This document shows, in pieces, positions 9,203 through 59,382 of a DNA stretch of 64,000 bases (position 1 is its first letter; every line of letters starts with the position of its first letter). The position numbers were made by a program, and so were the translations under genes. The notes under the pieces are model-generated. The model searched no databases and was not told the origin of the DNA. It saw only the letters and a program-made list of their open reading frames with translations. The DNA is from a virus, in IMG/VR virus record IMGVR_UViG_3300045988_165974, positions 74,244 to 138,243 of that record; one strand, 5' to 3'.

Positions 9203-9370
9203 GTTTTGAAAAATAGCCTAAAACCTCACACTAAATTTTATGTTAAAAACAGTTAATTAGATAGAAAAATATAACCAGATAGTATATTTTTTATTGCTCG
9301 ACTGTTATTATTATTAGACTACATACTACTAAACCATTCATACAGTATAATATTTTTAAGGAGGAAAATT

Positions 9371-15668: not shown

Positions 15669-16295
15669 ATGAAATATTACTCAATAGGAGAATTTGCGAA
15701 CCAAATAGGCAAGACGGTTCAAACACTTAGAAATTGGGATAATAAAGGAACTTTAAAACCGCATCATGTAACAGTAGGCGGAACAAGGTATTATTCTCAA
15801 GAACAACTTAATCATTTCTTAGGACTTAAAAATATGGAATCTAAAAATAAAAAAATTATTGGTTATTGCAGAGTTAGTTCTTATAAACAAAAAGACGACC
15901 TTGAAAGGCAAATTGAAAATGTAAAAACATATATGTATGCAAAAGGTTATCAATTCGAGATTATTTCTGATATTGGAAGTGGAATAAACTATAATAAAAA
16001 AGGATTAAATCAATTAATAGATATGATTACTAATTCAGAAATAGATAAGATAGTAGTCCTTCATAAAGATAGATTAATTAGATTTGGATATGAATTAATA
16101 AAAAATCTTTGTGATAAGTATGGGACTACTATTGAAATTATAGATAATACCGAGAGGACAGAAGAACAAGAATTAGTTGAAGATTTAATTCAGATAATCA
16201 CTGTATTTAGCTGTAGACTTCAAGGTAAAAGAGCTAATAAAGCTAAGAAAATGATTAAGGAGTTGATAGAAGATGATACTTGCAAAGAAAGTTAG
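15669..16295 (+). CDS. tnpA: IS607-type TnpA: MerR-like HTH plus serine recombinase
   Basis: The N-terminus reads ...YSIGEFANQIGKTVQTLRNWDNKG... The catalytic region reads ...IIGYCRVSSYKQKDDLERQ... Confidence 0.85.
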   Translation: MKYYSIGEFANQIGKTVQTLRNWDNKGTLKPHHVTVGGTRYYSQEQLNHFLGLKNMESKNKKIIGYCRVSSYKQKDDLERQIENVKTYMYAKGYQFEIISDIGSGINYNKKGLNQLIDMITNSEIDKIVVLHKDRLIRFGYELIKNLCDKYGTTIEIIDNTERTEEQELVEDLIQIITVFSCRLQGKRANKAKKMIKELIEDDTCKES

Positions 16296-17388
16296 ATTGT
16301 GCCCAAGTGAACTACAAGAAGAAAAAATATGGCAATCAGTAGGGACTGCAAGATTTATTTATAATTGGACTTTAAATAGGCAAGATGAAAATTATAAAGG
16401 TGGTGGTAAATTCATACCTGATAGTGTTCTTAGAAAAGAAATAACTCAATTAAAGAAAACTGACTTAAGTTGGTTAAATGAAGTATCTAATAATGTTGCA
16501 AAACAAGCTGTAAAAGATGCCTGTGATTCATATAAAAGATTCTTTAAAGGATTGTCAGGTAAACCTAGATTTAAAAGTAGAAAAAGAAGTAAGAAGTCTT
16601 TTTATCATGACAATGTTAAACTTAAAGTCAAGGATAATAAATTAGTTAAGATTGAAAAGATAGGTTGGATTAAAACTAATGAGCAACTATCTATTGGAGC
16701 TAAATATAGCAATCCAAGAATAAGTTATGATAACAAATATTGGTATTTATCAGTAGGTATAGAACAGGAAGAAATCCAAGAAGAATTAACAGATGCATCA
16801 TTAGGAATAGATTTAGGATTGAAAAACTTAGCAATCTGTTCTGATGGCACAGTATATAAAAATATAAATAAAACTTGTACAGTCAAAAAAATCGAAAAGA
16901 AACTAAAAAGATTACAAAGACAAATAAGTAGAAAGTATGAAAAAAATAAAAAAGGAAAGGAGTATGTCAAAACTAAAAATATTATAAAACTTGAAAAGCA
17001 GATACAACAGACACATAGAAGATTAGCTAATATTAGAAATAACTATCTTCATCAAACTACTACAAGTATAGTGAAAACCAAACCATACAGAGTTGTAATA
17101 GAAGATTTAGCAGTTTCTGATATGATGAAAAATAAACATTTATCTGATGCTATAAGAAAACAAGGATTCTATGAATTTAGAAGACAACTTGAATACAAGT
17201 GCAATTTTAGAGGAATTAAGTTAGTCGTAGCAGATAGATTTTATCCATCGTCAAAAATTTGTAGCCAATGTGGAGAGATTAAGAAGGATTTAAAGATATC
17301 CGATAGAGTATACAAGTGTAATTGTGGGCTTGTGATTGATAGAGATTTAAATGCAAGTATTAATCTTTCTAAATATAAATTAGCATAA
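16273..17388 (+). CDS. tnpB: TnpB RNA-guided endonuclease
   Basis: GIDLGLKNLAI (D), VVIEDLAVSDM (E), a Zn finger CSQCG...CNCG, and IDRDLNASINL (D). Confidence 0.9.
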   Translation: MILAKKVRLCPSELQEEKIWQSVGTARFIYNWTLNRQDENYKGGGKFIPDSVLRKEITQLKKTDLSWLNEVSNNVAKQAVKDACDSYKRFFKGLSGKPRFKSRKRSKKSFYHDNVKLKVKDNKLVKIEKIGWIKTNEQLSIGAKYSNPRISYDNKYWYLSVGIEQEEIQEELTDASLGIDLGLKNLAICSDGTVYKNINKTCTVKKIEKKLKRLQRQISRKYEKNKKGKEYVKTKNIIKLEKQIQQTHRRLANIRNNYLHQTTTSIVKTKPYRVVIEDLAVSDMMKNKHLSDAIRKQGFYEFRRQLEYKCNFRGIKLVVADRFYPSSKICSQCGEIKKDLKISDRVYKCNCGLVIDRDLNASINLSKYKLA

Positions 17389-17563: not shown

Positions 17564-18181
17564 ATGGAAGAAATAAAAGAAACACAAGTTGTTAATGAAG
17601 AATTAGAAAGCCTAAAAAAAGAAAAAGAAGCAACACTTAAAAGATTGACTGTTTTATCACAAGAAAATGAAATGTTGAGTTCTATAATAGAAGATTATCA
17701 AAAAGAATCGGGAGTTAAATTCAATCTTAACAAAGGAAAATTACTTCCTGCTTTGGTAGCTACACAAATGGAATTAAAAGAGGTTGAAAAAAGTAGTGAA
17801 AACCCTTTCTTCAATTCTAGTTATGCAGATTTATCTACGATAATAAAAGAGACAAGACCAATCCTAGCAAAACATGGCTTAGTAGTCGTACAAGCTCCGA
17901 TTAATGGTAAAATGGGATTAGATAAGAAACCAACACTTACAGTAAAAACAATTCTTTTCCATGAGGATGGAGAATTTATAGAATATGATTCAACTACCTT
18001 TGCTCCAAAAAACCCAGCAGATATACAGGCTTGGGGTTCTGCTATGACTTATTTAAAACGTTATACTTTGCAATCATTATTATGCATTTCTTTCAAAGTA
18101 GAGGACGATGACGGAAATTCAAATAGTGGAAAATCACCAGTTAAAGCTACTCCAACAAAGACAAAAGGTAATAGACTATAG
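17564..18181 (+). CDS. erf: ERF-family single-strand annealing recombinase
   Basis: ...NPFFNSSYADLSTIIKETRPILAKHGLVVVQ...AWGSAMTYLKRYTLQSLL... is the ERF signature. Confidence 0.8.
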   Translation: MEEIKETQVVNEELESLKKEKEATLKRLTVLSQENEMLSSIIEDYQKESGVKFNLNKGKLLPALVATQMELKEVEKSSENPFFNSSYADLSTIIKETRPILAKHGLVVVQAPINGKMGLDKKPTLTVKTILFHEDGEFIEYDSTTFAPKNPADIQAWGSAMTYLKRYTLQSLLCISFKVEDDDGNSNSGKSPVKATPTKTKGNRL

Positions 18182-22464: not shown

Positions 22465-24147
22465 ATGAAGATAAAGTTAAATAAAACAACAGAGGACATT
22501 AAAACAAACATGTTGACTAATCGAGGATTGACTGTAGAAGAAGTAAATAATCTTTTAAATCCAACTAAAAAAATGGTAGAAAGTATTTCTCATTATAATG
22601 TTGAAAAAGGGATTGATATGTATTTAAATTCAATAAAAAATAATGAATTAATTGCCACTTTAGTAGATGTAGATGCAGATGGTTATTGTTCTTCTTCTAT
22701 AGTATATCAAGTTACAACAGACGAATTTGGATATGAAAATATTGTTTATATACTTCAAGACGGCAAAACTCATGGACTTACAAGAAAGGTTGTAGATAAA
22801 CTTCTAAATTCAGATGTAAAATTACTGATAATTCCAGATGCGGGTTCAGATAATATTAAATTATTAAAAGAAATTTCAACGCATGGTATTAGTGTACTGA
22901 TACTGGACCATCATATAATTGAATTGCCAATGGATGAATTAAATAGTTTACATAATATTGTTCTAGTAAACTGTCAGAATGGAATTGTAGAAAATAAATA
23001 TCTATCAGGAACTGGAGTCACATATAAATTTTTTAGTGAAGTGGCTAAAAAACAAGGAATAAAGCTAAGAAGTAAATATTTAGACTTAGTTGCTCTTAGT
23101 CTTATTACAGATGTGTGTGATATGAAATTTAGTTTTGAAAATAGATATTATCTTTCTCAAGGTTCAAAAATAAGCAAAATAACTAATCCATTAATTGAAC
23201 TTTTCAAAGAAAAACTTAAAAAGAAAAGCAAAGATAAGTTTTCTATTACAGAGTTTGGATTTGAAATAGGCCCAAAGATAAATGCAATTATACGATATGG
23301 GACATTAGAAGAAAAAGAAATTCTTTTTAATGCAATGATTGGAGTTGAAGAATTACTACCAAATAAAAAGACATATCAACAAGAAACTTACACTATTGGT
23401 AGTAGATACCAAAGAATTCAAAGAGAATCCAGTAAAGAAATTATTCCATTACTCAATGACATTGTAGAAGAGACAAAAGCAAATGAGAAACCTGTAATTT
23501 TTATAGATGGGACAGACATTGTTCCAAAGGAAATAAAAGGATTATTATGTAATAAAATGCTTGATATATATAAAAAGCCAATTATGATTTCCACTTTAGA
23601 TAATGGAATTTATAGTGGTAGCAGCAGAAGTATAAAAACAGAACAATTATCTGATTTTAAATCTTTTTGTGAAAAAAGTCAATTGTTTGAATGGGTTCGT
23701 GGACATAATAATGCACATGGACATAAGATTAAAAAAGAAAACATACCTAAATTTTTAGAATACTGTGACAATAATTTAGATATGCAAGAGTATCAAGAGG
23801 AAGTAGAAAATATTTATGTAAATGAAATACCTCTTGAAGATGTAGTAGAAATAGCTAATTATGAAGAATTATGGTGCAATCAAATAGAACCACCAAAATA
23901 CCTTCTTAAAGGAGTTTGTTTAACTCCTGAAAGCATAGTTAGAGCAGGAAGTTCAACTTATAACATAATAATAGGAGATGTTAAATTTACTAAAGAATTT
24001 GGTTCTTTAGCTTGGTATAATGAAGTTTTAGATGAAATTTCAAAAACAGGATTATTAAATGTTGAACTTATTGTTGAATTTAGACAACAAAAGAATAAAC
24101 AACCTTATGCAAAAATTATTGAATTGAGGTGGGAACATGAAAGTTAG
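22465..24147 (+). CDS. RecJ-like DHH family ssDNA exonuclease
   Basis: ...LVDVDADGYCSS..., ...LILDHH..., ...RGHNNAHGH... The 560-aa size fits. Confidence 0.7.
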   Translation: MKIKLNKTTEDIKTNMLTNRGLTVEEVNNLLNPTKKMVESISHYNVEKGIDMYLNSIKNNELIATLVDVDADGYCSSSIVYQVTTDEFGYENIVYILQDGKTHGLTRKVVDKLLNSDVKLLIIPDAGSDNIKLLKEISTHGISVLILDHHIIELPMDELNSLHNIVLVNCQNGIVENKYLSGTGVTYKFFSEVAKKQGIKLRSKYLDLVALSLITDVCDMKFSFENRYYLSQGSKISKITNPLIELFKEKLKKKSKDKFSITEFGFEIGPKINAIIRYGTLEEKEILFNAMIGVEELLPNKKTYQQETYTIGSRYQRIQRESSKEIIPLLNDIVEETKANEKPVIFIDGTDIVPKEIKGLLCNKMLDIYKKPIMISTLDNGIYSGSSRSIKTEQLSDFKSFCEKSQLFEWVRGHNNAHGHKIKKENIPKFLEYCDNNLDMQEYQEEVENIYVNEIPLEDVVEIANYEELWCNQIEPPKYLLKGVCLTPESIVRAGSSTYNIIIGDVKFTKEFGSLAWYNEVLDEISKTGLLNVELIVEFRQQKNKQPYAKIIELRWEHES

Positions 24148-29442: not shown

Positions 29443-30672
29443 ATGAAAACATATGTTAATTATCATAAACACACATTTTATAGCAATATTATGACTCCTG
29501 ATTGTACTGTTTCTGTTGAACAATATTTAAATAGAATACAAGAACTTGGATATGGAGTTTATAGTACTGTAGAACATGGATATGGAGGAGAAAATTTCGA
29601 AACTTATCTTAAAGTAGAAAAGTTCAATAAAAAAAGAGAAAAAAAGGGACTTTCTCCAATAAAAATAATTTTTGGAATGGAATTATATTGGGTTCAGGAT
29701 AGACATAAAAAGGATAAATCAAACTGTCATATAGTTGTACTTGCAAGAAATAATAATGGAAGAAAAGCTCTAAATAAGATTATGAGCAGAGGAAATATAG
29801 ATGGGTACTACTATAAGCCTAGAGTGGATTTAGAACTCCTTATGAGCCTTCCTCCAGACGATATAATGATAACTACTGCCTGCATAGCTTTTAATAGATA
29901 TGAGGATATAGACGATATAATACTTATGCTAAATGATAGATTTCCACATTTTTATTTAGAAGTTCAAGCACATAATGTAGAAATTCAGAAAAAATGGAAT
30001 CAACATCTTTTAGATTTAAGCTATGAACATGACTTAAAAATAATTGCAGGAGTAGATAGTCATATGATATATGAATCTCAAGAAATAGAAAGAGATGAAT
30101 ATTTAAAAAGCAAAAATATGATATATGAAGAAGAAGACGGGTTTTACTTAGATTATCCAGATTATGAGACATTATATGATAGATTTAAGACCCAAGGAAT
30201 ATTATCTGATGAAGAAATAACTTTAGCTTTAGAAAATACAAATAAAATATTAGAATTTGAAGATATAAAATTAGATAAATCCATGAAATTACCTAATATA
30301 TATAAAACTTTAACTCAAGAAGAGAGAAATCAAAAACTTCACGATATTGTATTTGAAAACTGGAGAAAAGAAAAAAATAATGTTCCAAAAGATAAATGGT
30401 CTTATTATGAAAAACAAATTAATTATGAACTTTCTGAAATATTTGGATGCGGAATGGCAGATTATTTCTTGTTTAATGAAAAAACAATAGATTTAGGAAT
30501 AAACAAATATGGAGGAGTTTTAACACATAGCGGAAGGGGAAGTGCAGTTAGTTTTTATACAAATAAATTACTTGGATTTACAAATGTAGATAGAATCGCT
30601 TCAAAAATAACTATGTACCCTGAACGTTTTATGACTAAAGACAGAATACTAAAATCTCATACCCCACCTGAT
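29443..30672 (+). CDS. dnaE: DNA polymerase III alpha subunit (DnaE-type), exon 1 (PHP domain)
   Basis: The PHP motif reads ...VNYHKHTFYSN...STVEHGY... The exon ends ...KSHTPPD at a T (30672). Exon 2 continues IDFNV... and restores the PD-x-D-F polymerase motif. Confidence 0.75.
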
Positions 30673-31928
30673 TGGAAAATATTTATAAAATATGCTTATT
30701 AAAAAATATGAAAACTGATTATTATGTTTACGAATGGTACAATATTGAAACCAAAGAAGTTTTTTATGTTGGAAAAGGGAGAAAACATCGTTTTAAATGT
30801 GTTAGTGCTAAAAAAAAGAAGTAAAGAATTTATCAGTTATTATAATTCTCATAAATGTGACGTTAGAAAAATTAAAACAAATTTAACAGAAAAAGAAACT
30901 TATGAATTAGAAATTAAAATTATACAATATTATTTAGAAAATACTTCATATCCTCTTACAAATAAAACTAAAGGAGGAGATGGAGGCAGAGGAGAATTAA
31001 TAACAAATGAATTTAGGACTAAAATGAGCAAAATTGTAAGAGGAGAAAATAATCCAAATTACGGTCACTATTGGACAGAAGAACAAAGAGAAAAGTTAAG
31101 AGAAAAAATGATTGATAGATACAATGGAGAAAATAACCCTAATTACGGAAACCGTTGGAATAACCAACAAAGGGAAAGAATGAGTATTCAAAGAAAAAAT
31201 AATCCAAAATATTCAAATGGAAATCACGGAAGAGCTAAAAGGGTTATCGTGTTAGAAACTGGCGAAAAATTTGATTGTGTGAAATTAGCAAAAGCAAAAA
31301 GAGATGAATTAAATAAATCTTCTTTAGAATATAATATTGTAGAATTAACAGAAGAAAATGAAAAATATTTAGACGATGAAATAAATAGAATCAAAGAGAT
31401 AAAGAAAATTTTAAAATTAAAAACAAAGCTGTTTTTCTTTATAAGAGATGATAATAAAATAATATATTCACTCAAATCTCTAATGGAAGAAACAGGATTT
31501 GGAAAGAAAAAAATAAAATCCATGATAGAAAAAGAAGGAAGTGTAAAAACAAATAAGCATATTTATTATAAAATATAACAGTCGTCTTATAAGGAAACTT
31601 ATAGGATTACCATATCGCAAATTGTCTGGAACAAAGACTCTATATTTAACCTTTATAGAGTCACCCTAAAGCCTCATTTACTACAACATAAGAATGAAAT
31701 AAATCTAAGTGTGAATGTTGCGAAAGCAGAAAAAAATAATGAGGATGCCATAAGCTGAGATAAAAGCATACATAGGGTTATTGTATGTGCTAAGTGGTGT
31801 AAGAATGGGAAATCAGCAGCCGTGCCTCGAATAGAGGAGGGTTCAACGACTAAGCTCGATACACCTGTAAAATGGTGAAGATATAGTCTACTCCCCTAAG
31901 AAATATCGGGAAACCGAGGGTATTAAGG
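30673..31928 (+). mobile_element. Group I self-splicing intron carrying a homing endonuclease ORF
   Basis: Conserved core elements appear in order: P-like AAATTGTCTGGAA (about 31619-31631), Q-like AAATCAGCAGCC (31810-31821), R GTTCAACGACTA (31841-31852) and S AAGATATAGTCTA (31878-31890). P7 pairs GACTA with TAGTC. The 5' exon ends in T and the intron ends in G (31928). Confidence 0.75.
30708..31578 (+). pseudogene. GIY-YIG homing endonuclease with NUMOD3-like repeats, frameshifted in an A8 run
   Basis: Frame 0 reads MKTDYYVYEWYNIETKEVFYVGKGRKHRF...SAKKKK*. The +1 frame continues KKRSKEFISYYN...ETYELEIKIIQYY...LTNKTKGGDG, then GENNPNYG repeats. The frames join if A8 (30810-30817) were A7. Confidence 0.75.
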
Positions 31929-33971
31929 ATAGATTTTAATGTAAGTGACAGAGAGCCATTCCTAAAGGCTCAAAAGGAATTATTAGGAGAAACTTGTTGT
32001 TATGATTTATTAGCTTTTGGTACATTAAAACTTAAAGCTGCTTGGAAAATGTATGCTAGAGCTTGTGACATAAATCCAACTAAAGCTAATGAAATATCTC
32101 AACAAATAACTGCATATGAAACTAGATTAAAATATGCAAAAAGAGATGAAAATGGAGAACTTTTAGACGAAATAAATGTAGAAGATTTCGTAGAATCTAA
32201 ATATCTTCCATTAATTGACGAATGCAAAAAATATTTAGGAATAATAGATAATGGGAAAGCACATCCGTGTGGCTGTCTAGTCGGCTCATTTGATATAGAA
32301 GAAGAAGTTGGAGTTATCTTATGTAAATCAGAAACCACAAAAAAACAAGTTTTGACTGCTTGTATTCAAAGTGGAGTAATAGATTACTTTTCCTTCTTAA
32401 AAAATGATTTCCTAATCGTTTCGGTAGTAAAAACAACAAATGAAATTTACAATCGTTTAGGAATAAAACAATACTCCGAAAAAGAATTACTTGAATTAGT
32501 TGAAAATAATCAAAAGGTTTGGGATATATATAAGAATGGACTAACATTATGTATTAATCAAATAGAAAAACCAGGAACTCGTAAAAAAGTTATGAAGTAT
32601 AAGCCTAAAAATATAGTTGAACTAACTGCTTTTATTGCTGCAATAAGACCTTCATTTAAATCTTTAGTAAAACAATTTTTATCTAGGGAAGATTTTCATT
32701 ATGATGTAAAAGAATTTGATGAATTATTGCAAACAGAAGAAATGCCATATTCTTATATATTTTATCAAGAACAACTAATGAAAATATTAGGATTTGCTAA
32801 CTTTGACATAAAAGAAACATATGACATAGTAAAATCAATTTCTAAGAAAAAAACATATTGTAAAGAATGTGGAAATACGGGAAATGACGGAATGAAAACC
32901 TGTCCCGTATGTGGAAGTACAAAAATTGCTGCATTGGTTGATAAATTTGAAGAACAATTCTTAGATGGATTTACTAATAAGATAAGTACTCATGATGTAG
33001 AAATAACAAAAAAAATTTGGAGGGTCTTATTAGATTTTGCTAAATATGGATTCAATGCCTCTCATGCTTATTGTATGGCTTTAGATAGTGTCGAACAGGC
33101 ATATCTTAAAGCTTATCATACGGGAGTATTCTATGAGGTCATGTTAAGCATCTATACAAAAAAAGGAGAAAAAGATAAAGTATCAGAACTAAAACAAGAA
33201 ATGAAAAACTTTGGCATCAAATTAGGTAAAATAGCTTTTGGAGAAAATAATTATGAGTTTAAATACATTCCTGAAAAGAATGAAATAACTCAAAATATAA
33301 CTTCTTTTAAAAATATAAATCAACAATGTGCGATAGAGTTATATAAACTTTCTCAAGCTAAACGCTATAATAATTTTTTAGAACTATTAAAAGATATAAA
33401 AGAAAAAACTTCAATCTCAAAAAGACAATTAGACCCACTTATAGATATGGGGTATTTTGCAGAATTTGGAAACACACAATATATTAGAAAATGTTATGAA
33501 GTATTTGAAATGTTTTATAAAAAAGTACAATTTAGTAATGCAAATCCATATTCTTATATTATTGAAAAATACGCTAATAAAAAAACTCCTAAGCAATACA
33601 GAGAAGTAGATACAGATAAAGTAATGTTAGATATCATGAGTAATTATGATAAAGCTGTGAGCGACATTGAAAAGGTTATATACGATTTTAAAAAATACAA
33701 TGAAACAAGTCACATAACAGAAAATAAATATTATGTCGTTATGGATTTAGATACAAAATATTCTCCAAAACTTACTTTGTATAATACTAAAAATAAAAAC
33801 AAACAGGTAGTAAAAATAAGTAAATCTTTGTTTAATAAAATACCATTATCAGAGTACGATGCAATTAAAATAAAAAAAGTAGTTCCAAAACCTAGAAAGA
33901 AAAAAATTGACGGAGAATGGACTAATTTATCTGTAACAGATTATTGGATAATAGACTATGAAAAAGTATAG
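31929..33971 (+). CDS. dnaE: DNA polymerase III alpha subunit, exon 2
   Basis: In frame from 31929 (IDFNVSDREPFLKAQKELLGE...). ...FAKYGFNASHAYCMALDSVEQAYLKAYH... matches the DnaE fingers motif FA-YGFNKSHA. The tracked ORF starts at an internal ATG (32049). Confidence 0.75.
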   Translation: MDFNVSDREPFLKAQKELLGETCCYDLLAFGTLKLKAAWKMYARACDINPTKANEISQQITAYETRLKYAKRDENGELLDEINVEDFVESKYLPLIDECKKYLGIIDNGKAHPCGCLVGSFDIEEEVGVILCKSETTKKQVLTACIQSGVIDYFSFLKNDFLIVSVVKTTNEIYNRLGIKQYSEKELLELVENNQKVWDIYKNGLTLCINQIEKPGTRKKVMKYKPKNIVELTAFIAAIRPSFKSLVKQFLSREDFHYDVKEFDELLQTEEMPYSYIFYQEQLMKILGFANFDIKETYDIVKSISKKKTYCKECGNTGNDGMKTCPVCGSTKIAALVDKFEEQFLDGFTNKISTHDVEITKKIWRVLLDFAKYGFNASHAYCMALDSVEQAYLKAYHTGVFYEVMLSIYTKKGEKDKVSELKQEMKNFGIKLGKIAFGENNYEFKYIPEKNEITQNITSFKNINQQCAIELYKLSQAKRYNNFLELLKDIKEKTSISKRQLDPLIDMGYFAEFGNTQYIRKCYEVFEMFYKKVQFSNANPYSYIIEKYANKKTPKQYREVDTDKVMLDIMSNYDKAVSDIEKVIYDFKKYNETSHITENKYYVVMDLDTKYSPKLTLYNTKNKNKQVVKISKSLFNKIPLSEYDAIKIKKVVPKPRKKKIDGEWTNLSVTDYWIIDYEKV

Positions 33972-52502: not shown

Positions 52503-52562
52503 GAATTTTCCTCCCTTTTACTGTCTTTTAATAGATTATATGTAAAAGTACTGAAAATATTC

Positions 52563-52592
52563 CAAAAAAAATTCCCCTAAATTTTCTAGGGG
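52563..52592 (-). terminator. Intrinsic terminator after the recombinase gene; palindrome CCCCTAAATTTTCTAGGGG
   Basis: 19-nt palindrome at 52574-52592. A T8 run follows on the - strand. Near-identical to 53972-53990. Confidence 0.7.
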
Positions 52593-52657: not shown

Positions 52658-53641
52658 TTATACAATTGAACATTTTCCATATTGATAATTTACTTTATCC
52701 ATAGACGTTTTAGCATATATTTGAGTTGTAGTAATATTCTCATGACCTAAAAGAAATTGCACAGTTTCAATATCTGCTCCTGCATTAAATAAAGAAGTTG
52801 CAAAAGTATGTCTTAACTTATGAGGAAATATAATTGGAAGAGTATTTTTTCTTTTAGATATATTTGCTAATATCTTTTGAATTGCTCTTACTCTAAGTCT
52901 TTTATAAGGTTTTCTTTCAGATGTAAATAGAGCTTCATTTTTGCCTTTTCTATTATCTAAATATTGTTTTAAGTATAGTTTACATTTATCATTGAATAAT
53001 ATCATTCTTTCTTTATTTCCTTTACCAATAGTTTTTAATCTGTTTAAAGAAAAGTCTAATTCAAAGATATTTGTTTTTTGAATTTCAGAAACTCTCATTC
53101 CTGTTGCTAACATAAATTCAACTAAAGCTCTTTCTCTATCTGTTTTGCAGCACATTCTTAGATTTTCCATTTCTTCTACAGATAAAGGTTCTCTAATTCT
53201 TTGAGGTTCTTTAAGTTTTCTTAATTTCTTTGTTGGGTTTTTCTCTATGTATTCTTCCTCAACTAACCAACTAAAGAAGGATTTAATAACTGAAATTAAT
53301 CCATTTACAGTTGATATTTTTACAGATTTCTTTTTAAAGTTTAAATAAGCTTTTAAATCAACTATTGTAATTTGAGGAATCTCTTTGTTTACATAATCTA
53401 AGAAATATTTTAAAGTATATATTCTGTTTTTAATAGTTCCACTTGCATAGTCTAAAGTTTCCATGTCTTGTTTATATTCCTCTAAAATTTCTTCTGTATT
53501 GTTTTCTTTTTTGTTTATTAACTCAACATCATAGTTTCTTACTACATCATATAATATTTTTTCTAAATCATTTTTTTCTATACTATTATCAACAATTTTA
53601 TTCATTATTTGTTTTATTATTTTTTCATTATCTTTATTCAT
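52658..53641 (-). CDS. Tyrosine recombinase / integrase (XerC/D-like, full length)
   Basis: ...[19 protein letters not shown]..., ...[13 protein letters not shown]..., ...[16 protein letters not shown]... An N-terminal SAM-like core-binding domain is present. Confidence 0.85.
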
Positions 53642-53777: not shown

Positions 53778-53978
53778 ATGGATATTTCAACACAAATAAG
53801 AAAAATAATGCTAGATGAAAAAATAAATATTGTAGAATTAGCTAAGAGACTAAATACATCACAACCAAATGTTTCTGCAAAGCTTAAACGAAACAATTTC
53901 AACATTAAAGATTTAGAAAGATTTTGCAATGCTTTAGGTTATAAAGTTGAAATCATATTTAAAAAAGAAAACCCCTAG
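53778..53978 (+). CDS. XRE-family HTH regulator
   Basis: ...INIVELAKRLNTSQPNVSAKLKRNN... It is divergent from the recombinase. An extended -10 (TGTATAAT) and an AAGGAGGTG RBS lie upstream. Confidence 0.75.
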   Translation: MDISTQIRKIMLDEKINIVELAKRLNTSQPNVSAKLKRNNFNIKDLERFCNALGYKVEIIFKKENP

Positions 53979-53996
53979 AATTTCTAGGGGTTTTAT
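53972..53996. terminator. Palindromic hairpin/terminator CCCCTAGAATTTCTAGGGG overlapping the XRE stop
   Basis: 19-nt palindrome at 53972-53990, followed by TTTT. Confidence 0.65.
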
Positions 53997-54007
53997 ATTT
54001 CATAAAT

Positions 54008-54167
54008 TTAGATTTTATTTATGTTCACAATATTTTTAAATTGTGAATCAATTTCTTTAAACTTAGTTGTATTTGATTTTCCATTTTCATCTATAACCAA
54101 ATTTGGTGATGTGTAATGATAGTCAAAACCATAGTTCCCTTTTCTTGTTTTTATTTTTTTTGCCCAT
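54008..54167 (-). pseudogene. Truncated, frameshifted duplicate of the 5' end of the CotH fibre gene
   Basis: The RBS and ATG (54167) are followed by a T8/A8 run (54154-54161) that shifts the frame. In the shifted frame it reads ...KKIKTRKGNYGFDYHYTSPNLVIDENGKSNTTKFKEIDSQFKNIVNINKI*. The CotH gene reads MGKKMKTRKGKDGYDYPYTSPNLVIDENGKSNTTKFTEIDSQFKDIAKK. Confidence 0.75.
54019..54052. repeat. Fibre box a: TTCACAAT-ATTTTTAA-ATTGTGAA (complete inverted repeat)
   Basis: Arms at 54024-54031 and 54040-54047, spacer at 54032-54039. Confidence 0.8.
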
Positions 54168-54249
54168 TATTTGAACCTCCTTTAAATCATACTATTATCC
54201 CCTTATAATTATCTACATTAACTATAAATGATTATAAAGGAATAATCAA

Positions 54250-56649
54250 CTAACTAATAGTTATTCCTTCAAATATTGTAGCATAAGGCGCAGTCCCATT
54301 ACCTTTTGCAAATCCAATTTTCACATAATGTGTATTTGCATCTAATTGATAATTCACATAAGACTTAGCAAAACTTCTCTTTATGAAAATTTTTTTTTCA
54401 TCATATTCAACTAATCTTAAATTATTTATACTATCAGATACATCTCTTGACACATTTATTGTAATTGTTCCTTGTTTTTCTATGTAATTCTTTAATAGCG
54501 CATTATCATTTGACTCTACAAATTCTCCGTTGTCATTTATATAGCCTTTTAAGTAATTAGGCATACCTGTAACTGTTACATTACAAGTTGCCGTTTGACT
54601 ACCACAGATAACAGTTATAACACAGCTACCATTATCAATTGGAGTTACAACTCCTTTTTTTACCGTACATATTCCAGTAGGAGATACACTCATAATAACT
54701 TTATCAGTTGTATTGTATGGAATTAATGTTACTTTTAATGTTTGTGAGTCTGTTGTATTGATTCCTAATGAAGTATCACTTAATGCTAAACCTGTACAAG
54801 CAATAGTATCTTTTGACAATTTATAATATTTATCATTAATGTCTACAATTAAATCATTCAAATCCCCATCATTAATTGCAGATGCTGAACTTAAAATTAA
54901 TTTTATATATTTTGTATTTGTTTGCAAGCTATCAACCCCTGATACTACTTTTTTACCTGGCAAACCACTTCCAATATAGTTATAATTTTCATCATAACAT
55001 CTAATTACATGAGTAATTAGATTATTATTTACATCAGAATTTATAGAAACCGATGTCGTATCTACAGAAATATAATTTGTTCTTACATCCATCGTTGAAA
55101 TTTCTTCAACGCCTGTTTTATAATTTATAGTACCTAATTCATAATATAAACTTTCACCATCCGTAATAATTTCTTGATTTTCCATAACAGTATCCATATA
55201 TACAAATCTTTTATTTGCCCAATCTAATATATAAGTTTTAGGGTCTGTTATTTGGTTGCCATCAAAATTAGTACCAGTATATTTTACTTCATAGTTTTTT
55301 GCTAACCAAACATCAGATACATTACCTAGAACATGATTTATACTATCTTCAACTTGTTCAGCTGTAAATAAAGTTGTTCTTAATTCTTTATATTTAGCAA
55401 TTATTTCAGATTTAAAATTCTTCCATAATTTATCAAATAATCTACTGGTTTTACAGCCAAAAGAACTTAATTCTATATTTGTGCTACTTTTACCAACATT
55501 ATAAGTAGTACCAAATGCATAATCCATATCCCAAAACGTAGCATACCATTTAGCTTTATCTGGGAAATATAACATATTAAAGTTTTTAGCTTTACTATCA
55601 ATCATTGCACAAGTATACATGATTACAAAATAATTTATAAGATATTCTCTATCAAAATATGTTTCTAAGTTAGCTATAAACTCTTCGTCACTTACTTCAC
55701 TCACCCATTGTATTGCGTTATATAATACATCTGGGTGATTAGAAGTTTTATCCCATACTCTATCTTCCCAGTAATAATCAATCTCTGCATGGGCATCTGT
55801 AAAATTTTTGCCTGCATTACTACCACTATTTAAATTTCCATAAATGAATGCTCCAGAATTATCTCCATTATTTGAACCGTTATTAAGTCCAATTTGATAA
55901 CAAAGGTCTGCTTGTTGTGTAACAGAACCATCTTCTCCTAATACTTCTTCATTTAGGTTATATACTTTATCATCTTGTTTCAAGTTCCAGAAGTAAATTC
56001 CTACAAATTCATTATTTACATAAAGAAGTATCGGAAATCCATCAACAGTATATCTAGCGCCTGTTCTAGGCAAAGGTGTTAAATATTGATAAGATTTAGT
56101 AACATAATGCATCATTAAATTGTTCATTATATTAGTCCCTTCACCAAAGTTACATTTTAAATGATAATTATTTGTTTTATGCCAATCTTTAAATTGTCGG
56201 TTATTTTTAGTAGTTCTAGATTCATCTGTAAATAATTTTATTTTATAATTCTTTTTAGGAAATGAAAGTGACCCACTTCCTTGATAAGATATAGTAGCAT
56301 AATCTGTAAAGTTTATATTATTCAATTCATCATTGAAATTACAAGTTACATTTTTATAATTGTCAGCACTAATACCAGTTAAATCACCTACTACATTAAC
56401 AATAGGTAATTTTTCAACTAAATCTGATAAAGTATAACCTAATTTATTTAGTAATTTTAAGAATAAATCATTTTCACCTAAATTAGGATTTACATTCTCT
56501 ATTTTCTTCGCAATATCTTTAAATTGCGAATCAATTTCTGTAAACTTAGTTGTATTTGATTTTCCGTTTTCATCTATAACTAAATTTGGTGAAGTGTATG
56601 GATAATCATATCCATCTTTTCCTTTTCTAGTTTTCATCTTTTTTCCCAT
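54250..56649 (-). CDS. Tail fibre / receptor-binding protein with a CotH kinase-like domain and a Big_2-like Ig domain
   Basis: ...KKNYKIKLF...NYHLKCNFGEGTNIMNNLMMHYV...VDGFPILLYVNNEFVGIYFW...NFNMLYF...WDMDYAFG is the CotH pattern. ...LKVTLIPYNTTDKVIMSVSP...CVITVICGSQTATCNVTV is Ig-like. Confidence 0.75.
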   Translation of the reverse strand: MGKKMKTRKGKDGYDYPYTSPNLVIDENGKSNTTKFTEIDSQFKDIAKKIENVNPNLGENDLFLKLLNKLGYTLSDLVEKLPIVNVVGDLTGISADNYKNVTCNFNDELNNINFTDYATISYQGSGSLSFPKKNYKIKLFTDESRTTKNNRQFKDWHKTNNYHLKCNFGEGTNIMNNLMMHYVTKSYQYLTPLPRTGARYTVDGFPILLYVNNEFVGIYFWNLKQDDKVYNLNEEVLGEDGSVTQQADLCYQIGLNNGSNNGDNSGAFIYGNLNSGSNAGKNFTDAHAEIDYYWEDRVWDKTSNHPDVLYNAIQWVSEVSDEEFIANLETYFDREYLINYFVIMYTCAMIDSKAKNFNMLYFPDKAKWYATFWDMDYAFGTTYNVGKSSTNIELSSFGCKTSRLFDKLWKNFKSEIIAKYKELRTTLFTAEQVEDSINHVLGNVSDVWLAKNYEVKYTGTNFDGNQITDPKTYILDWANKRFVYMDTVMENQEIITDGESLYYELGTINYKTGVEEISTMDVRTNYISVDTTSVSINSDVNNNLITHVIRCYDENYNYIGSGLPGKKVVSGVDSLQTNTKYIKLILSSASAINDGDLNDLIVDINDKYYKLSKDTIACTGLALSDTSLGINTTDSQTLKVTLIPYNTTDKVIMSVSPTGICTVKKGVVTPIDNGSCVITVICGSQTATCNVTVTGMPNYLKGYINDNGEFVESNDNALLKNYIEKQGTITINVSRDVSDSINNLRLVEYDEKKIFIKRSFAKSYVNYQLDANTHYVKIGFAKGNGTAPYATIFEGITIS
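56502..56535. repeat. Fibre box b: TTCGCAAT-ATCTTTAA-ATTGCGAA (complete inverted repeat, inside CotH codons ~39-47)
   Basis: Arms at 56507-56514 and 56523-56530, spacer at 56515-56522. Confidence 0.8.
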
Positions 56650-56669
56650 ATGATTTCCTCCTTTATATT

Positions 56670-56698
56670 AAAGAAAGAGCAGATTGATTTCTGCTCTT
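56670..56698 (-). terminator. Intrinsic terminator between the SGNH and CotH fibre genes
   Basis: AGAGCAG (56676-56682) pairs with CTGCTCT (56691-56697). T-rich downstream on the - strand. Confidence 0.6.
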
Positions 56699-56717
56699 GT
56701 ATTGTTTAAATTTTATT

Positions 56718-56746
56718 TTAATAATATTTTTAAATTGCGAACTTAT
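56718..56746. repeat. Fibre box c: half site, spacer ATTTTTAA plus arm ATTGCGAACTTAT, non-coding
   Basis: Spacer at 56726-56733 and arm at 56734-56746. It lies 8 nt 3' of the SGNH gene stop. Confidence 0.75.
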
Positions 56747-56753
56747 TTATATT

Positions 56754-58442
56754 TTATAACCATGTTAACATCCAATTATAAACAGGTATAGCTATGCCAT
56801 ATAAATGTCCTAAATCATTAGGGTGCACTGCTCCAGTGGCTTCCCCTGTAGCTTCTGTTCCATCTGCATAATATGTAGAAACATTAGTATTATTATAAGG
56901 TCTTAATACTGGATTTTGATGATAAATATCTAAGAATGGTATCCCTAAATCTTCACACACATATTTTTGTGCAGTTACATAATCACTATACCAACCATGA
57001 CCATATGATTTAGGATTGTTAGACCAATACTTTGTTATATCATTATCTCTAGGTGTACTTGAAATCATACCTATTTTTGCTTTAGGATATTTTTCAATTA
57101 AATCTTCCAATAATCTCCTTACTATTCCATATTCAGAAAACACTGTTTTATCATCAGTTTTTTCACCTACAACAGGAGGAACACCATTTTTCGCATTATC
57201 ACCACCATCGGGATAAATATCTATAAATCCACCTCCACCACCTGTTCCATCATTCTGATTTCCCATTATGAGTATAATATCGGGATTGGCAGGGTAAAGA
57301 GTAGACCATTTATTTTCTATACGATAAATAGTAGAACCTCTTTGATAATAATTTTTAGCAAATCCAGTTCCTCCTTGTCCGTCATTGTGGATAGTTAAAC
57401 CTAACCATTCAGCTAAATATTCATGCCATACTTTTGTAGCAGTTGAATTTTTTTCTACAATACTATCTCCACCAACAATCATAACCTTGCTTTTAAATCT
57501 ATTTATATTATCAAAACTTGGTAAATTTAGTGCTTTTTGAAATTTTTCTTTATACCCTGTATTAAAATCAAAACTACCCTCTGATTGTTCATCTGATGAT
57601 AATTCTACTGTTACTGTTTTTGCACAAGCGAATCTGAAATAAGTAGCATTATATGTGTCTAAATTTTCAAATACAGTTGTATTCTTATTATAAGAAGAAT
57701 AATTAATTTGTTGTATAAATGTTTTATTAGCATCAAACAAATTAATACTATTAATTGTATTTGAAGAACAAGTAATTGTTAATTTTGTAAATGAAATAGG
57801 TAAATATTGAGTGACCTTATAATTACCATTCACAAATTCATTACCATTAGAAATAGAATATCCTTCTTTCCATTCTATTTCATCAACCCCCGTACTTGCT
57901 TGCGTTTCTATTAGAAATGATGTTTTATTAGGAGTTACTGTTCCATCCCCTACTGTTAATGCAGATAAAGTTCCATCGTCTATTTTAGATTGAATTATAT
58001 TTGTTAATTGTTCATCTGTAACAACTGCTGTAGGAATTTCAACAGTTGCTATTTGAGTACCATCATTCATAAGTTTAAGTGTTTGCCCACTCATACTCAT
58101 AGTTATTTTGGATAAGTCTACATCACTTCCACCTATTTCGATTCCATCACCTATAAGCGTTCCATCTTGTTTCTTGATATATACTTTTCCGTCAGAATGT
58201 TTTGTAAGAGATAAGTTCGCAATATCTTTAAATTTATCGTTTACTTCATTTATTGCAGGTATTATTTTTTTATTATCTGTTTCTAGCGTATCATGTTCAC
58301 TATCTGATATTCCTTCCATAGAAGTGTCATCTTCAATTAGATTAATCTGATTTTCTTTTACTGTTTCAATATCTGTTCTAGCTTTAGCGTCTTTAAGATT
58401 AATTTCTATTCCATTTATCTCAATTGATTTTGCATCTGCCAA
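56754..58442 (-). CDS. Tail fibre/spike protein with a C-terminal SGNH/GDSL esterase domain
   Basis: ...VMIVGGDSIVE... (GDS), ...GQGGTGF..., ...IMGNQNDG..., ...VHPNDLGH... (DxxH). Confidence 0.75.
   Translation of the reverse strand: MADAKSIEINGIEINLKDAKARTDIETVKENQINLIEDDTSMEGISDSEHDTLETDNKKIIPAINEVNDKFKDIANLSLTKHSDGKVYIKKQDGTLIGDGIEIGGSDVDLSKITMSMSGQTLKLMNDGTQIATVEIPTAVVTDEQLTNIIQSKIDDGTLSALTVGDGTVTPNKTSFLIETQASTGVDEIEWKEGYSISNGNEFVNGNYKVTQYLPISFTKLTITCSSNTINSINLFDANKTFIQQINYSSYNKNTTVFENLDTYNATYFRFACAKTVTVELSSDEQSEGSFDFNTGYKEKFQKALNLPSFDNINRFKSKVMIVGGDSIVEKNSTATKVWHEYLAEWLGLTIHNDGQGGTGFAKNYYQRGSTIYRIENKWSTLYPANPDIILIMGNQNDGTGGGGGFIDIYPDGGDNAKNGVPPVVGEKTDDKTVFSEYGIVRRLLEDLIEKYPKAKIGMISSTPRDNDITKYWSNNPKSYGHGWYSDYVTAQKYVCEDLGIPFLDIYHQNPVLRPYNNTNVSTYYADGTEATGEATGAVHPNDLGHLYGIAIPVYNWMLTWL
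58211..58239. repeat. Fibre box d: half site, arm ATAAGTTCGCAAT plus spacer ATCTTTAA, inside SGNH codons ~70-77
   Basis: Arm at 58211-58223 (the exact reverse complement of 56734-56746) and spacer at 58224-58231. Confidence 0.75.
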
Positions 58443-58946
58443 TTAAATCACTTCCTTTATTTTTTCAGAATTATTATCATAATCTATCTTACCTGTAATA
58501 ATAATTTTTTCTTCATTTGGATTATATTCTAATTTAATACTTCCACTCGGAATATCTGGAGTAGTTCCTTCTGACATGATATCCCTATTCACCTCATATA
58601 AAAATGTATTTAAAGGAACGACTTTTTCAGTTGTTGATTTATCTTCAATAATAATTTGACAAGAATATTTTCCTTCAATATTTTTATATTTATCTTCTAA
58701 ATTACAGTAATATAAATTATTGTTTTTGTCATATTTTGTAAGCTCTTTCTTTAACACATCTCCCTTTGGATTTTTTATATATAAAGTTGTTTTAAAATTT
58801 GTTAAATCAATCTTAAATCCATTTCTTGTAATATTAATATAAAAATCACTTGTTTGATTATCACTTAAAGAGAACTCCATTTTTAAACCATTTTCTTTTC
58901 TTGAGATTAAATCTAAATAAATAGCTTTGTATTTTTTATTTAGCAT
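58443..58946 (-). CDS. Hypothetical tail-associated protein
   Basis: The start is taken at Met-7 (58946), behind an AGAGGTGA RBS. Confidence 0.55.
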   Translation of the reverse strand: MLNKKYKAIYLDLISRKENGLKMEFSLSDNQTSDFYINITRNGFKIDLTNFKTTLYIKNPKGDVLKKELTKYDKNNNLYYCNLEDKYKNIEGKYSCQIIIEDKSTTEKVVPLNTFLYEVNRDIMSEGTTPDIPSGSIKLEYNPNEEKIIITGKIDYDNNSEKIKEVI

Positions 58947-58956
58947 ACAATCACCT

Positions 58957-59382
58957 CTATTCATTTATAGCTTTACTTATTTTTATTTTTTCAGAATCAC
59001 TATCGTAAGTTGCATTGATAGATTGTCCTTTAGGCACAAATGTTTTAGTGGTTTCTCCTATTGTAACAACAAGTTCTCCATCTTCATTAAAAGAAAGAAT
59101 ATTTTTTATTAATTTAGATATGTCAACATTTCCTGCAATTTGCTTTAATATTTCACTATCGTCAATATTATAAAGACAATCTGCATACATTTCTTTTTCT
59201 TCAATTGTCTTTGGAATTGGTAAATTTGTTTTTTTAAGTAAATCTATTAAATCATTATCTGATATTCCATAGGATTTGACTGTTTGATATATTTTATAAA
59301 ATTGTTTATTATTTTTAGGATAATCTAAATTTCCATAACTTTGTCCGTATTTGTCATTAAAATACTTTAATAATTTTATCAC
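58957..59382 (-). CDS. Hypothetical tail-associated protein
   Basis: 141-aa ORF with an AAGGAGG RBS. Confidence 0.55.
   Translation of the reverse strand: MIKLLKYFNDKYGQSYGNLDYPKNNKQFYKIYQTVKSYGISDNDLIDLLKKTNLPIPKTIEEKEMYADCLYNIDDSEILKQIAGNVDISKLIKNILSFNEDGELVVTIGETTKTFVPKGQSINATYDSDSEKIKISKAINE

Follow-up and report, generated by a model that had tools for sequence, protein, structure and literature searches.

Palindromic DNA boxes at the ends of tail-fibre bodies exchanged among gut clostridial phages

A palindromic DNA element, here called the box, lies at the joints of the tail-fibre genes in a 64,000-nucleotide stretch of viral DNA (positions 74,244 to 138,243 of IMG/VR record IMGVR_UViG_3300045988_165974), which is referred to below as the window. 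Comparison with other phages shows that swapped, deleted and inserted units end exactly at boxes, that the DNA of the box is constrained and not the peptide alone, and that fibre bodies are replaced at a rate well above that of backbone divergence. These observations would be accounted for by site-specific recombination of the conservative, Cre/Xer type, moving in-frame cassettes, and from the sequence comparisons we assign this interpretation a probability of roughly 0.55.

Host range is the main limit on phage use, and fibre swapping is usually described as rare, untargeted recombination. Swapping of whole bodies at boxes in gut clostridial phages means that host range can change in one step, and the joint at which it happens is portable: it is fixed at the nucleotide level and stands in frame at the border between anchor and body, and again after the stop codon. 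If the site-specific interpretation is correct, it would represent a new use of such recombination, namely the exchange of protein-domain cassettes, and the system would be a phage "integron" for protein domains or nature's version of engineered recombinase-mediated cassette exchange. Should a recombinase act on the joint, the retargeting of clostridial phages would have a ready-made, plug-and-play tool. Under a homologous-recombination explanation, the boxes would be the clearest case known to us of the nucleotide-level "linker" predicted by the modular theory of phage evolution.

The phage is AT-rich (~27% GC). The 138,243-bp contig that carries the window also encodes a ribonucleotide reductase and a DNA polymerase III alpha subunit, and the replicative helicase shares 52% identity with its counterpart in the phiCD211-type big Clostridium difficile phages; some related big C. 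difficile phages have been described as extrachromosomal, with genes for tyrosine recombinases and an ERF-like protein (PMC5786514). The names of the samples suggest human, largely infant, gut assemblies. DNA and protein searches of a phage collection returned no cultured relatives of the region, a plasmid collection gave no match, and a targeted full-text literature search found no publication describing the box element.

The box as a two-form DNA element

The element has the sequence TTCGCAAT-TTAAARAT-ATTGCGAA, often with arms extended to 12 nt. An exact-pattern scan of IMG/VR yielded 64 stretches, and each match was classed by translating the DNA around it. All 42 exact boxes with the core TTAAAGAT (G-core) lie in long open reading frames (ORFs), with at least 251 open codons downstream unless the end of the locus cuts the ORF; in all 28 with the core TTAAAAAT (A-core), the frame closes within a few codons. 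With up to four arm mismatches allowed, the unique sites comprise 62 coding and one non-coding G-core box, and 0 coding and 58 non-coding A-core boxes (Fisher p = 3e-34). The sole non-coding G-core site is a deletion scar in L070 (L numbers denote the loci compared).

The two forms occupy set places in a fibre gene. A short anchor is followed by the in-frame G-core box, TTCGCAAT-TTAAAGAT-ATTGCGAA, which reads SQFKDIA, and then by the body, the stop codon and a non-coding A-core box. Nearly every locus has the G-core box within the fibre ORF and then an A-core box on the same strand, either directly 3' of the fibre stop or past the fibre gene and one or two small ORFs; the stop codon is often the last three bases ahead of the A-core box. 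An in-frame stop after the A-core box is present in 11 of the 28 exact sites, which was judged not significant in AT-rich non-coding DNA.

The consensus of 50 unique non-coding sites, TTAG-TTCGCAAT-TTAAAAAT-ATTG(C/T)G(A/T)A-CTAA, is a palindrome with 12-nt arms whose flanks are otherwise unrelated. Inverted arms of 8 nt are present in all sites, and the 12-nt arms of the non-coding consensus are TTAGTTCGCAAT and ATTGCGAACTAA. Where sites are defined by their arms alone, the core TAAARA is found in 54 of 56, with variation only at spacer positions 1 and 8. The loxP site has such a pattern, its 8-bp spacer containing a 6-bp overlap for strand exchange, and the boxes have the geometry of a tyrosine-recombinase core site (lox/FRT/dif type), with two inverted arms around an asymmetric center of 6–8 bp and two alleles, G and A. 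Compensatory covariation of the arms was considered and rejected, since all four R/Y combinations occur among relatives. The paired arm change described in the earlier note, which preserves the palindrome, is therefore not general.

Codon usage separates the DNA of the box from the peptide it encodes. In 30 unique coding boxes, a set that excludes the sites used to find their loci, serine is encoded by TCG in 13 of 13 cases, alanine by GCG in 25 of 25, isoleucine by ATT in 29 of 29 and asparagine by AAC in 16 of 17, whereas these codons account for 2.0%, 5.5%, 42% and 16%, respectively, of the codons for the same residues in the window's long ORFs. The substitutions seen at the alanine codon, GTG and ACG, are non-synonymous and keep the third base. 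The fixation of rare codons inside the box indicates that the DNA itself is constrained, beyond the peptide, and non-coding boxes are conserved despite unalignable flanks. That the boxes are DNA-level elements, as had been proposed, is thus upheld: there is no synonymous drift inside the box, and non-coding copies are the rule in relatives.

In the window, the fibre region is encoded on the minus strand. In the direction of coding, the BppU_N gene (58964-58443) is followed by the SGNH fibre gene (58442-56754), box c and a terminator, the CotH fibre gene (56649-54250), an orphan copy of the CotH 5' end (54170-54008), a bidirectional terminator, a plus-strand helix-turn-helix (HTH) gene and a recombinase gene (53641-52658). 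A search with the box pattern at up to three mismatches gives three matches in the window, against 0.01 expected by chance, and box d is a fourth copy, so that all four boxes reported earlier exist; their spacers share one orientation.

Box a: 54024-54047, minus strand; A-core, complete palindrome TTCACAAT-TTAAAAAT-ATTGTGAA; a recombinant joint.
Box b: 56507-56530, minus strand; G-core, complete palindrome; reads (D)SQFKDIAK, CotH codons 40-48.
Box c: 56718-56741, with an ATAAG extension to 56746, minus strand; A-core, non-coding, ATAAG-TTCGCAAT-TTAAAAAT-ATTATTAA.
Box d: 58216-58239, with a CTTAT extension at 58211-58215, minus strand; G-core, in frame, reads DKFKDIAN(L), SGNH codons 68-77.

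Boxes c and d had been regarded as primary half sites, but both are full boxes in which the outer arm has decayed. The right arm of box c, ATTATTAA, has decayed at 2 positions and is followed by the same tail as in box a; its right flank, aataaaatttaaacaa..., equals the flank of box 6600 in L169. Box d, the joint between the anchor and the SGNH body, consists on the coding strand of the decayed left arm CGATAAAT (58239-58232), the spacer TTAAAGAT (58231-58224) and the right arm ATTGCGAA (58223-58216), and the decayed arm sits in an otherwise conserved anchor of the AINEVN type. The 13-nt inverted repeat around the SGNH body proved exact, with ATTGCGAACTTAT and ATAAGTTCGCAAT at 58211-58223 and 56734-56746; the SGNH stop lies 7 nt from the 13-nt arm, not 8. 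Box a reads DSQFKNIVN, with a stop four codons later.

Similarity to other phages tends to start and stop at these boxes, in line with what the earlier note had observed within the window. The ends of high-scoring segment pairs (HSPs) accumulate at 56507, 58234 and 54024: HSPs to L003, L013, L041, L048 and L011 terminate at 58234, the N_C-type anchors of many loci end at 56507, and the homology of L029 to the window breaks off at 54025, in box a. A Chi-like or general motif was rejected as an explanation of the box, since the arm 8-mers are rare in the window and their two extra copies (47432 and 60498) lack the spacer.

Outside metagenomic phage sequence, the exact box gave only 3 matches in a collection of species-representative genomes. 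Two of these, L066 (41-64 and 6248-6271) and L065 (4823-4846), were rejected as phage boxes: they are perfect hairpins with stems of ~20 bp on Clostridium contigs among non-phage genes, and are probably unrelated repeat or terminator palindromes. The cultured C. perfringens phages CPQ4 (L167, 6008-6031) and CPD1 (L168, 6000-6023) have a degenerate half box, TGAAAGAT-ATTGCGAA-ctaaaaatt, right after the stop of a fibre-like gene, and the similarity between these two phages begins inside the half box, after different fibre C-termini.

Replacement, deletion and insertion at the boxes

Ten sister loci from ten samples were found through the neighbouring BppU_N protein, and their gene order is the same: 488 aa, 141 aa, BppU_N, variable region, HTH, Xer-like recombinase, 62 aa, 128 aa, 83 aa, 746 aa, holin and amidase. 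The 10.2 kb upstream of the box are 99.5–100% identical among the sisters, yet eight unrelated bodies follow, including metallophosphatase fibres of 759, 823 and 826 aa, a 1449-aa fibre and a body of the NNQPTDLSL type. The G-core box lies at one common coordinate in 10 of 10 sisters, behind a 29-aa anchor. The alignment of related phages that had been suggested as a check therefore does reveal different bodies between the same boxes.

L070 provides an exact empty site. It is bodiless, its gene reading LADAKSIEINGIDINIKDAKAREDIEKLDTQFKDIVY and then a stop codon. Its box, TACGCAAT-TTAAAGAT-ATTGTGTA, is composed of the left arm and core of the coding box of L068 and the right arm and flank of the non-coding box of L068. 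Identity between the two loci is 100.0% in the backbone and 99.85% over the 656 nt that are left of the variable region. L070 thus corresponds to L068 with an exact box-to-box deletion of 2194 nt, the crossover lying within ATATT.

The same joints recur across lineages. The 67 unique coding sites connect 15 anchor clusters with 29 body clusters at the box in 48 combinations, such that one body type is found behind up to 6 anchors and one anchor ahead of up to 10 bodies. Left-arm variants and the first spacer base go with the anchor. On unrelated backbones, a 33.7-kb phage (L006) and the 138-kb lineage (L029/L076) share one cassette, the NNQPTDLSL body together with two small ORFs, at 99.4% identity over 1259 nt; in the 200-nt flanks of this cassette, the similarity is limited to 29 matching nt on the upstream side. 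Conversely, L033 and L052 agree completely in their flanks and differ in their bodies. The arms that belong to the cassette, namely the right one of the coding box and the left one of the non-coding box, carry fewer mismatches on average than the docking arms (0.33 versus 0.90, p = 0.004, and 0.51 versus 1.34, p = 0.0015), the same difference that separates the sites of mobile elements from their target sites.

The CotH fibre of the window is itself a mobile unit. L169, found through an 827-aa CotH variant, has the window's long SGNH anchor and the same decayed arm, but a CotH body follows. Positions 56525-54007 of the window and 4123-6636 of L169 are 99.56% identical over 2519 nt, so that the CotH block fills slot 2 in the window but slot 1 in L169, where the long anchor precedes it. 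The statement that boxes a and b bracket the CotH body is confirmed in this sense. Past the orphan anchor, L169 continues with a box, a linker (terminator, ribosome-binding site, new N_C anchor) and a G-core box; the genes that follow encode a GH16 fibre, an RHH protein and an Acb2/Tad1-like protein, and beyond them lies the half site 9872, TAAATAAA-ATAAAAAT-ATTGTGAA-cataaataaaatc. Box a of the window is two L169 sites joined: its left half is that of box 6600 and its right half that of site 9872 (100% over 138 nt from spacer position 2). These two sites have only a 10-nt identical run in common. The window is therefore without a 3.27-kb block of L169. The earlier interpretation of box a as an excision scar agrees with such a deletion or insertion joint.

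Blocks other than fibre bodies have also entered. Three unrelated cargo blocks interrupt A-core boxes, bounded by a full site on one side and a half site on the other, with junctions in the 6-bp core, and the box is the only homology to the recipient that flanks them. A coiled-coil-like ORF of 158 aa, without a family match in Pfam or PHROGs, interrupts the box in L068 (12873-13349), L070 (10679-11155) and L072 (13121-13597), and the box of L071 is uninterrupted. A pair of 51-aa and 117-aa ORFs (L076, 11867-12377), for which Pfam gave no match, is 100% identical at the protein level in L076/L029 and L057 after two different bodies; its junction lies in the AAAAA of the spacer. The third block is the GH16 fibre, RHH and Acb2-like set of L169.

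Two side observations concern the same regions. In L169, the RHH and Acb2/Tad1-like anti-defence genes occupy 9153-9777, between the GH16 fibre and the half box, and are missing from the window; the position of the Acb2/Tad1-like gene at a box dock implies that the dock also collects anti-defence cargo. A variant of the flank after the non-coding box (L071 about 12990-13100; also in L070, L073, L074 and L077) encodes a very hydrophobic 25-aa peptide, MFGFYKTLMICMTIIFSVLIIFGTN, behind a good ribosome-binding site.

In four cases (L070, box a compared with L169, the 51-aa and 117-aa pair, and the 158-aa ORF), the crossover can be confined to an interval of 5–10 nt in or beside the spacer, a result that homologous exchange could yield as well. 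Gain, loss and swapping of bodies behind fixed anchors, as postulated earlier, are seen exactly at the boxes in the sisters, L070, L169 and the 48 combinations. Assembly chimeras are an unlikely source of these mosaics. The arrangements recur across independent samples and assemblers (L029 and L076 are 100% identical, L069 and L077 97.4%), and some contigs come from assemblies with k = 111–119, longer than the box.

Candidate mechanism and enzyme

Three outcomes are seen at the boxes and would stem from recombination in the TAAARA core: bodies are swapped between phages, including between temperate phages of ~40 kb and phages of ~138 kb; deletion from box to box leaves anchor, box and stop; and extra fibre units or unrelated cargo genes are inserted at A-core boxes. 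In the proposed mechanism, the inverted arms would be the binding sites of a simple tyrosine recombinase, with strand exchange across the 6-bp core. The G and A cores would constitute two compatibility classes, such that like-with-like exchange at both ends replaces the cassette while excision between box 1 and box 2 stays rare, the L070 deletion being the one G x A product. The palindrome, the pattern of core conservation and the half sites at insertion junctions favor a site-specific process, as do partner identities of only 5–10 nt, the better-conserved cassette arms and the strict separation of G and A cores. A more elaborate version, in which heterospecific, lox- or dif-like G and A sites and a simple tyrosine recombinase, possibly supplied by the host or the 138-kb phage, mediate natural in-frame cassette exchange between unrelated co-resident phages and load extra fibres and anti-defence cargo, is plausible but in our judgement falls somewhat short of even odds.

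Several findings weigh against site-specific recombination. In principle, short stretches of identity would be enough for recombination to produce swaps, deletions and insertions alike. In the non-coding box, right-arm variants go mostly, but not strictly, with the downstream flank; other mosaic breakpoints, for example at 57941, have no box; and the fixed G of the coding boxes could reflect the mere need for Asp. The same boxes also occur in phages with other integration enzymes, namely lambda-type integrases with arm-binding domains (L010, L011, L047 and L055) and large serine integrases (L003, L061 and L002). In a second lineage of ~136-kb phages, two or three box-bracketed fibres lie upstream of the tail genes, and neither the one annotated locus (L024) nor a tblastn search across all loci with the window integrase revealed an integrase. 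Finally, the window encodes an Erf-like single-strand annealing protein (17564-18181, plus strand) and a RecJ-like exonuclease (22465-24147, plus strand).

The last two genes bear on the main rival, possible though on balance doubtful, which holds that boxes are conserved linkers serving as homology arms for the Erf-like annealing protein or host RecA, with no dedicated recombinase. Precedents are T-even fibres, which undergo exchange at His boxes and glycine motifs, and the relaxed recombination carried out by Rad52-like proteins. The box-less breakpoints, the partial uncoupling of arm variants from flanks and the sameness of the boxes whatever the integrase are in line with it, and recombination genes similar to those of the window have been reported in big C. 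difficile phages (PMC5786514). This explanation covers swaps between full boxes but not the palindrome, the core pattern or the half-site insertions. Homology arms need neither a palindrome nor a near-invariant 6-bp core with variable edges, and arms that form hairpins should impede annealing. Partners with only 5–10 identical nt (L169 sites 6600 and 9872, the 51-aa and 117-aa pair, and the junctions of the 158-aa ORF) and cargo inserted inside boxes without flanking homology are difficult to reconcile with it, and a conserved non-coding 32-mer would require second-order selection for evolvability.

The remaining alternatives fare far worse. A regulatory RNA or DNA hairpin (3' stabiliser, processing site, pause site or operator), whose place at the boundary would be secondary, could draw on the predicted RNA hairpins (-8.9 kcal/mol for box b, -7.2 for box a and -14.7 for the consensus with a 12-bp stem) and on the position of the non-coding box directly past the stop codon; it is nevertheless improbable. 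No T-run follows the box, separate terminators lie downstream, no Rfam family came near any gathering score in the region, and the pairing is not kept by compensatory change. Moreover, the most conserved part of such a hairpin would be its loop, the spacer, and the exact joints, the empty site and the cargo insertions would go unexplained. An inversion switch of the Rin/Min type, in which a recombinase flips C-terminal segments behind a constant N-terminus, would fit an armless tyrosine recombinase beside a fibre locus with one site in the gene and one just past it, as in Rin. It can be set aside almost entirely: none of about 75 phage loci has boxes in both orientations, silent inverted bodies are absent, no long ORF opposes either fibre body of the window, and the sisters differ by replacement. 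The earlier distinction from Gin/Cin-type switching thus stands, with no inverted boxes in any phage locus. Equally hard to credit is coincidence or artefact, that is, an xFKDIAx peptide motif that is palindromic by chance or chimeras assembled at a shared repeat. The motif does lie in a coiled-coil-like region and all sequences are metagenomic assemblies, but the fixed rare codons and 58 non-coding copies contradict a peptide motif, and the recurrence in independent samples and the k = 111–119 contigs contradict chimeras.

If site-specific recombination is responsible, the gene beside the fibre locus is an obvious place to look for the enzyme.

Tyrosine recombinase gene: 52658-53641, minus strand; 327 aa, armless and Xer-like, with the catalytic R-K-HxxR-H-Y residues intact; candidate box enzyme.

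Its start lies 383 bp from box a, in agreement with the proximity noted before. By Pfam, the protein has Phage_integrase and SAM-like domains and no arm-binding domain. Its best solved relatives are XerA and XerD, and its best NCBIfam matches are Xer models, all below their cut-offs; against the integron-integrase model TIGR02249 it scores 92.6 bits, with a cut-off of 265. The gene adjoins the variable region in every relative of the window's lineage whose contig extends that far, namely the ten sisters, L029 and L079 (in L079, the protein is 83% identical and an A-core box lies ~355 nt upstream), and the L169 contig stops at the HTH gene.

Other loci count against the adjacent enzyme. In L034, a homologue with 45% identity occupies the usual prophage integrase position after the lysis genes. 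In L019 and L051, the fibre, box and terminator are followed by genes of 62 and 124 aa, without a recombinase; these downstream genes (62 aa, 124 aa, 83 aa and ~750 aa) are the same as those of the window and come directly after the fibre terminator. Relative to these two loci, the recombinase and HTH module looks inserted. A side observation at the same place is a 36-nt direct repeat, 81% identical, of terminator hairpins (CCCCTAnAnTTTCTAGGGG) at 52557-52592 and 53955-53990, which flanks the module. Among the top 80 matches in a scan of the Xer-like family, only three small-phage contigs besides that of L029 carry boxes, and none belongs to the second large-phage lineage, whose fibre neighbours are tail genes and TnpB.

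A single recombinase common to all box-bearing phages can be rejected because their integrases are heterogeneous. One 24-mer cannot be the specific substrate of so many different integrases, which leaves either a single enzyme that the host or the 138-kb phage supplies in trans, or recombination that needs no enzyme of its own. The earlier proposal of recombinase-driven module swaps is thus supported in part, by the adjacency in the ten sisters, L029 and L079 and by the armless Xer type, and weakened by the same boxes in company with other integrases or none found. The Xer-like gene is tentatively retained as a candidate box enzyme in the window's own lineage, and an enzyme of the host, or some other one acting in trans, is no less likely. 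No attP was identified next to the recombinase gene, and no contig above 200 kb with the neighbouring BppU_N protein was found in 175 index blocks. A plasmid-like lifestyle, in which the recombinase would serve multimer resolution, is possible.

Known systems and other features of the region

The box resembles several known systems in part. In the Rin shufflon of Bifidobacterium prophages, an armless tyrosine recombinase acts on a receptor-binding gene with one site in the gene and one just after its 3' end (PMC6109161). Rin and the boxes have in common the constant N-terminus, a direct second site after the 3' end and, in the window's lineage, a flanking gene for an armless XerD-like recombinase, but the rix site of Rin is asymmetric and 11 bp long, the Rv segments are silent and inverted, and the outcome is an inversion inside a single genome (PMC6109161). 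The boxes, in contrast, are palindromes of 24–32 bp with an asymmetric core, are all direct, take part in replacement, deletion and insertion, and are common to unrelated phages. In the Gin/Cin/Min systems of Mu, P1 and p15B, the crossover site likewise lies at the joint between constant and variable fibre parts beside the recombinase gene; these are, however, serine invertases with a 2-bp core and inverted sites that produce inversions between two or a few states, none of which is seen here.

The likeness to Cre/loxP and engineered cassette exchange extends to the inverted arms, the 8-bp asymmetric spacer and its near-invariant central 6 bp, and one-base core variants at the left and right ends of the cassette recall the heterospecific-lox layout with which engineers exchange cassettes while avoiding excision. 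This likeness is one of site layout: heterospecific behavior is suggested by the G/A split, and there is one G x A deletion (L070). Like integrons, the boxes delimit compact cassettes by palindromic sites, with insertion and excision at a fixed dock where unrelated cargo accumulates. They differ in that the recombinase falls well below the integron-integrase cut-off, the sites are palindromes of 24–32 bp with perfect arms and not attC hairpins of 57–141 nt, and the cassettes are headless in-frame bodies, whereas integron cassettes are promoterless whole ORFs served by one promoter.

XerCD/dif and the elements that exploit it (CTX-phi and TLC-phi; PMC9226527) offer a further parallel. A reading of the box as a 28-mer of the form 11-6-11 is possible, the window's recombinase resembles Xer, and integrated blocks leave one good and one half site, as Xer-exploiting elements do. 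A host enzyme acting on the box would explain why one site occurs in phages with different integrases. The box does not match the Firmicutes dif consensus. Mimicry of dif was rejected as not convincing, with 16 of 28 positions shared with B. subtilis dif in a hand comparison; for the likeliest hosts there is no published dif, the one survey consulted listing it as N.D. for C. perfringens (Kono 2011 supplement).

As with the boxes, the His boxes and glycine-rich motifs of T-even phages and the boundary sequences of lambdoid phages are short conserved border sequences that permit adhesins to be swapped. Those borders are conserved as protein and show the usual codon drift, and they have neither a palindrome nor a non-coding partner behind the gene. 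Free synonymous variation of the His-box type is absent from the box, in which synonymous positions are fixed on rare codons.

The other features of the fibre region are as follows.

BppU_N baseplate protein gene: 58443-58964, minus strand; fixed left-hand neighbour of the variable fibre region.
SGNH/GDSL tail-fibre gene: 56754-58442, minus strand; 562 aa, anchor aa 1-69 and body aa 70-562.
Linker unit: 56507-56746, minus strand; box c, terminator hairpin 56676-56697, ribosome-binding site, 40-aa N_C anchor 56531-56649 and box b.
CotH-domain tail-fibre gene: 54250-56649, minus strand; 799 aa.
Mobile CotH block: 54007-56525, minus strand; spacer and right arm of box b, CotH body, 80-nt gap, orphan N_C' anchor, and left arm and spacer of box a.
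Orphan N_C' anchor fragment (empty dock): 54008-54170, minus strand; ends ...DSQFKNIVNINKI and a stop codon.
Bidirectional terminator hairpin CCCCTAGAATTTCTAGGGG: 53972-53990, no strand assigned; closes the fibre operon and the HTH gene.
Cro/CI-type HTH gene: 53778-53978, plus strand; 66 aa, divergent from the recombinase gene and conserved in all sisters.

The linker unit is 84% identical to L169 6600-6841, with the same layout. The orphan anchor is a 146-nt copy of the 5' end of the CotH gene, 86% identical and terminated by box a; it carries a +1 frameshift in an A-run, and an intact 63-aa ORF is present at L169 6481-6672. The terminator at 53972-53990 is the right-hand limit of the variable region in all sisters.

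Within the SGNH gene, the shaft part of the body (aa 70-167) is common to other phages. A second mosaic breakpoint, the box-less one at 57941 (aa ~167), separates the shaft from the SGNH head; HSPs from at least six loci begin there, and it has neither a box nor a palindrome. The anchor differs as well: in the ten sisters and L029, the G-core box comes right after the 29-aa anchor, and at the corresponding place in the window (58362, SGNH codon ~27) and in L169 the sequence is instead ...DIETVKENQINLIED.... The anchor of the window and L169 runs ~45 residues further, is of the AINEVN type and is borrowed from the other large-phage lineage.

An IS607-like pair, a 208-aa MerR-HTH serine recombinase (TnpA) and a 371-aa TnpB, occupies 15669-17388 of the window on the plus strand. 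In the 40-kb phages L035 and L052, ORFs of 208 and 371 aa start ~300 nt past the A-core box, and in the 136-kb phage L024 a 412-aa TnpB lies beside the fibre locus, upstream of the first fibre. Such placement may mark intergenic spots that are merely tolerant of insertions. The IS607-like TnpA was rejected as the box enzyme, as there is no box at the TnpA ends.

Elsewhere in the window, the DNA polymerase III alpha gene (29443-33971, plus strand) appears to be interrupted, a 284-aa ORF separating parts of 419 and 640 aa; its relatives include a single protein of 1090 aa, and an intervening element is possible.

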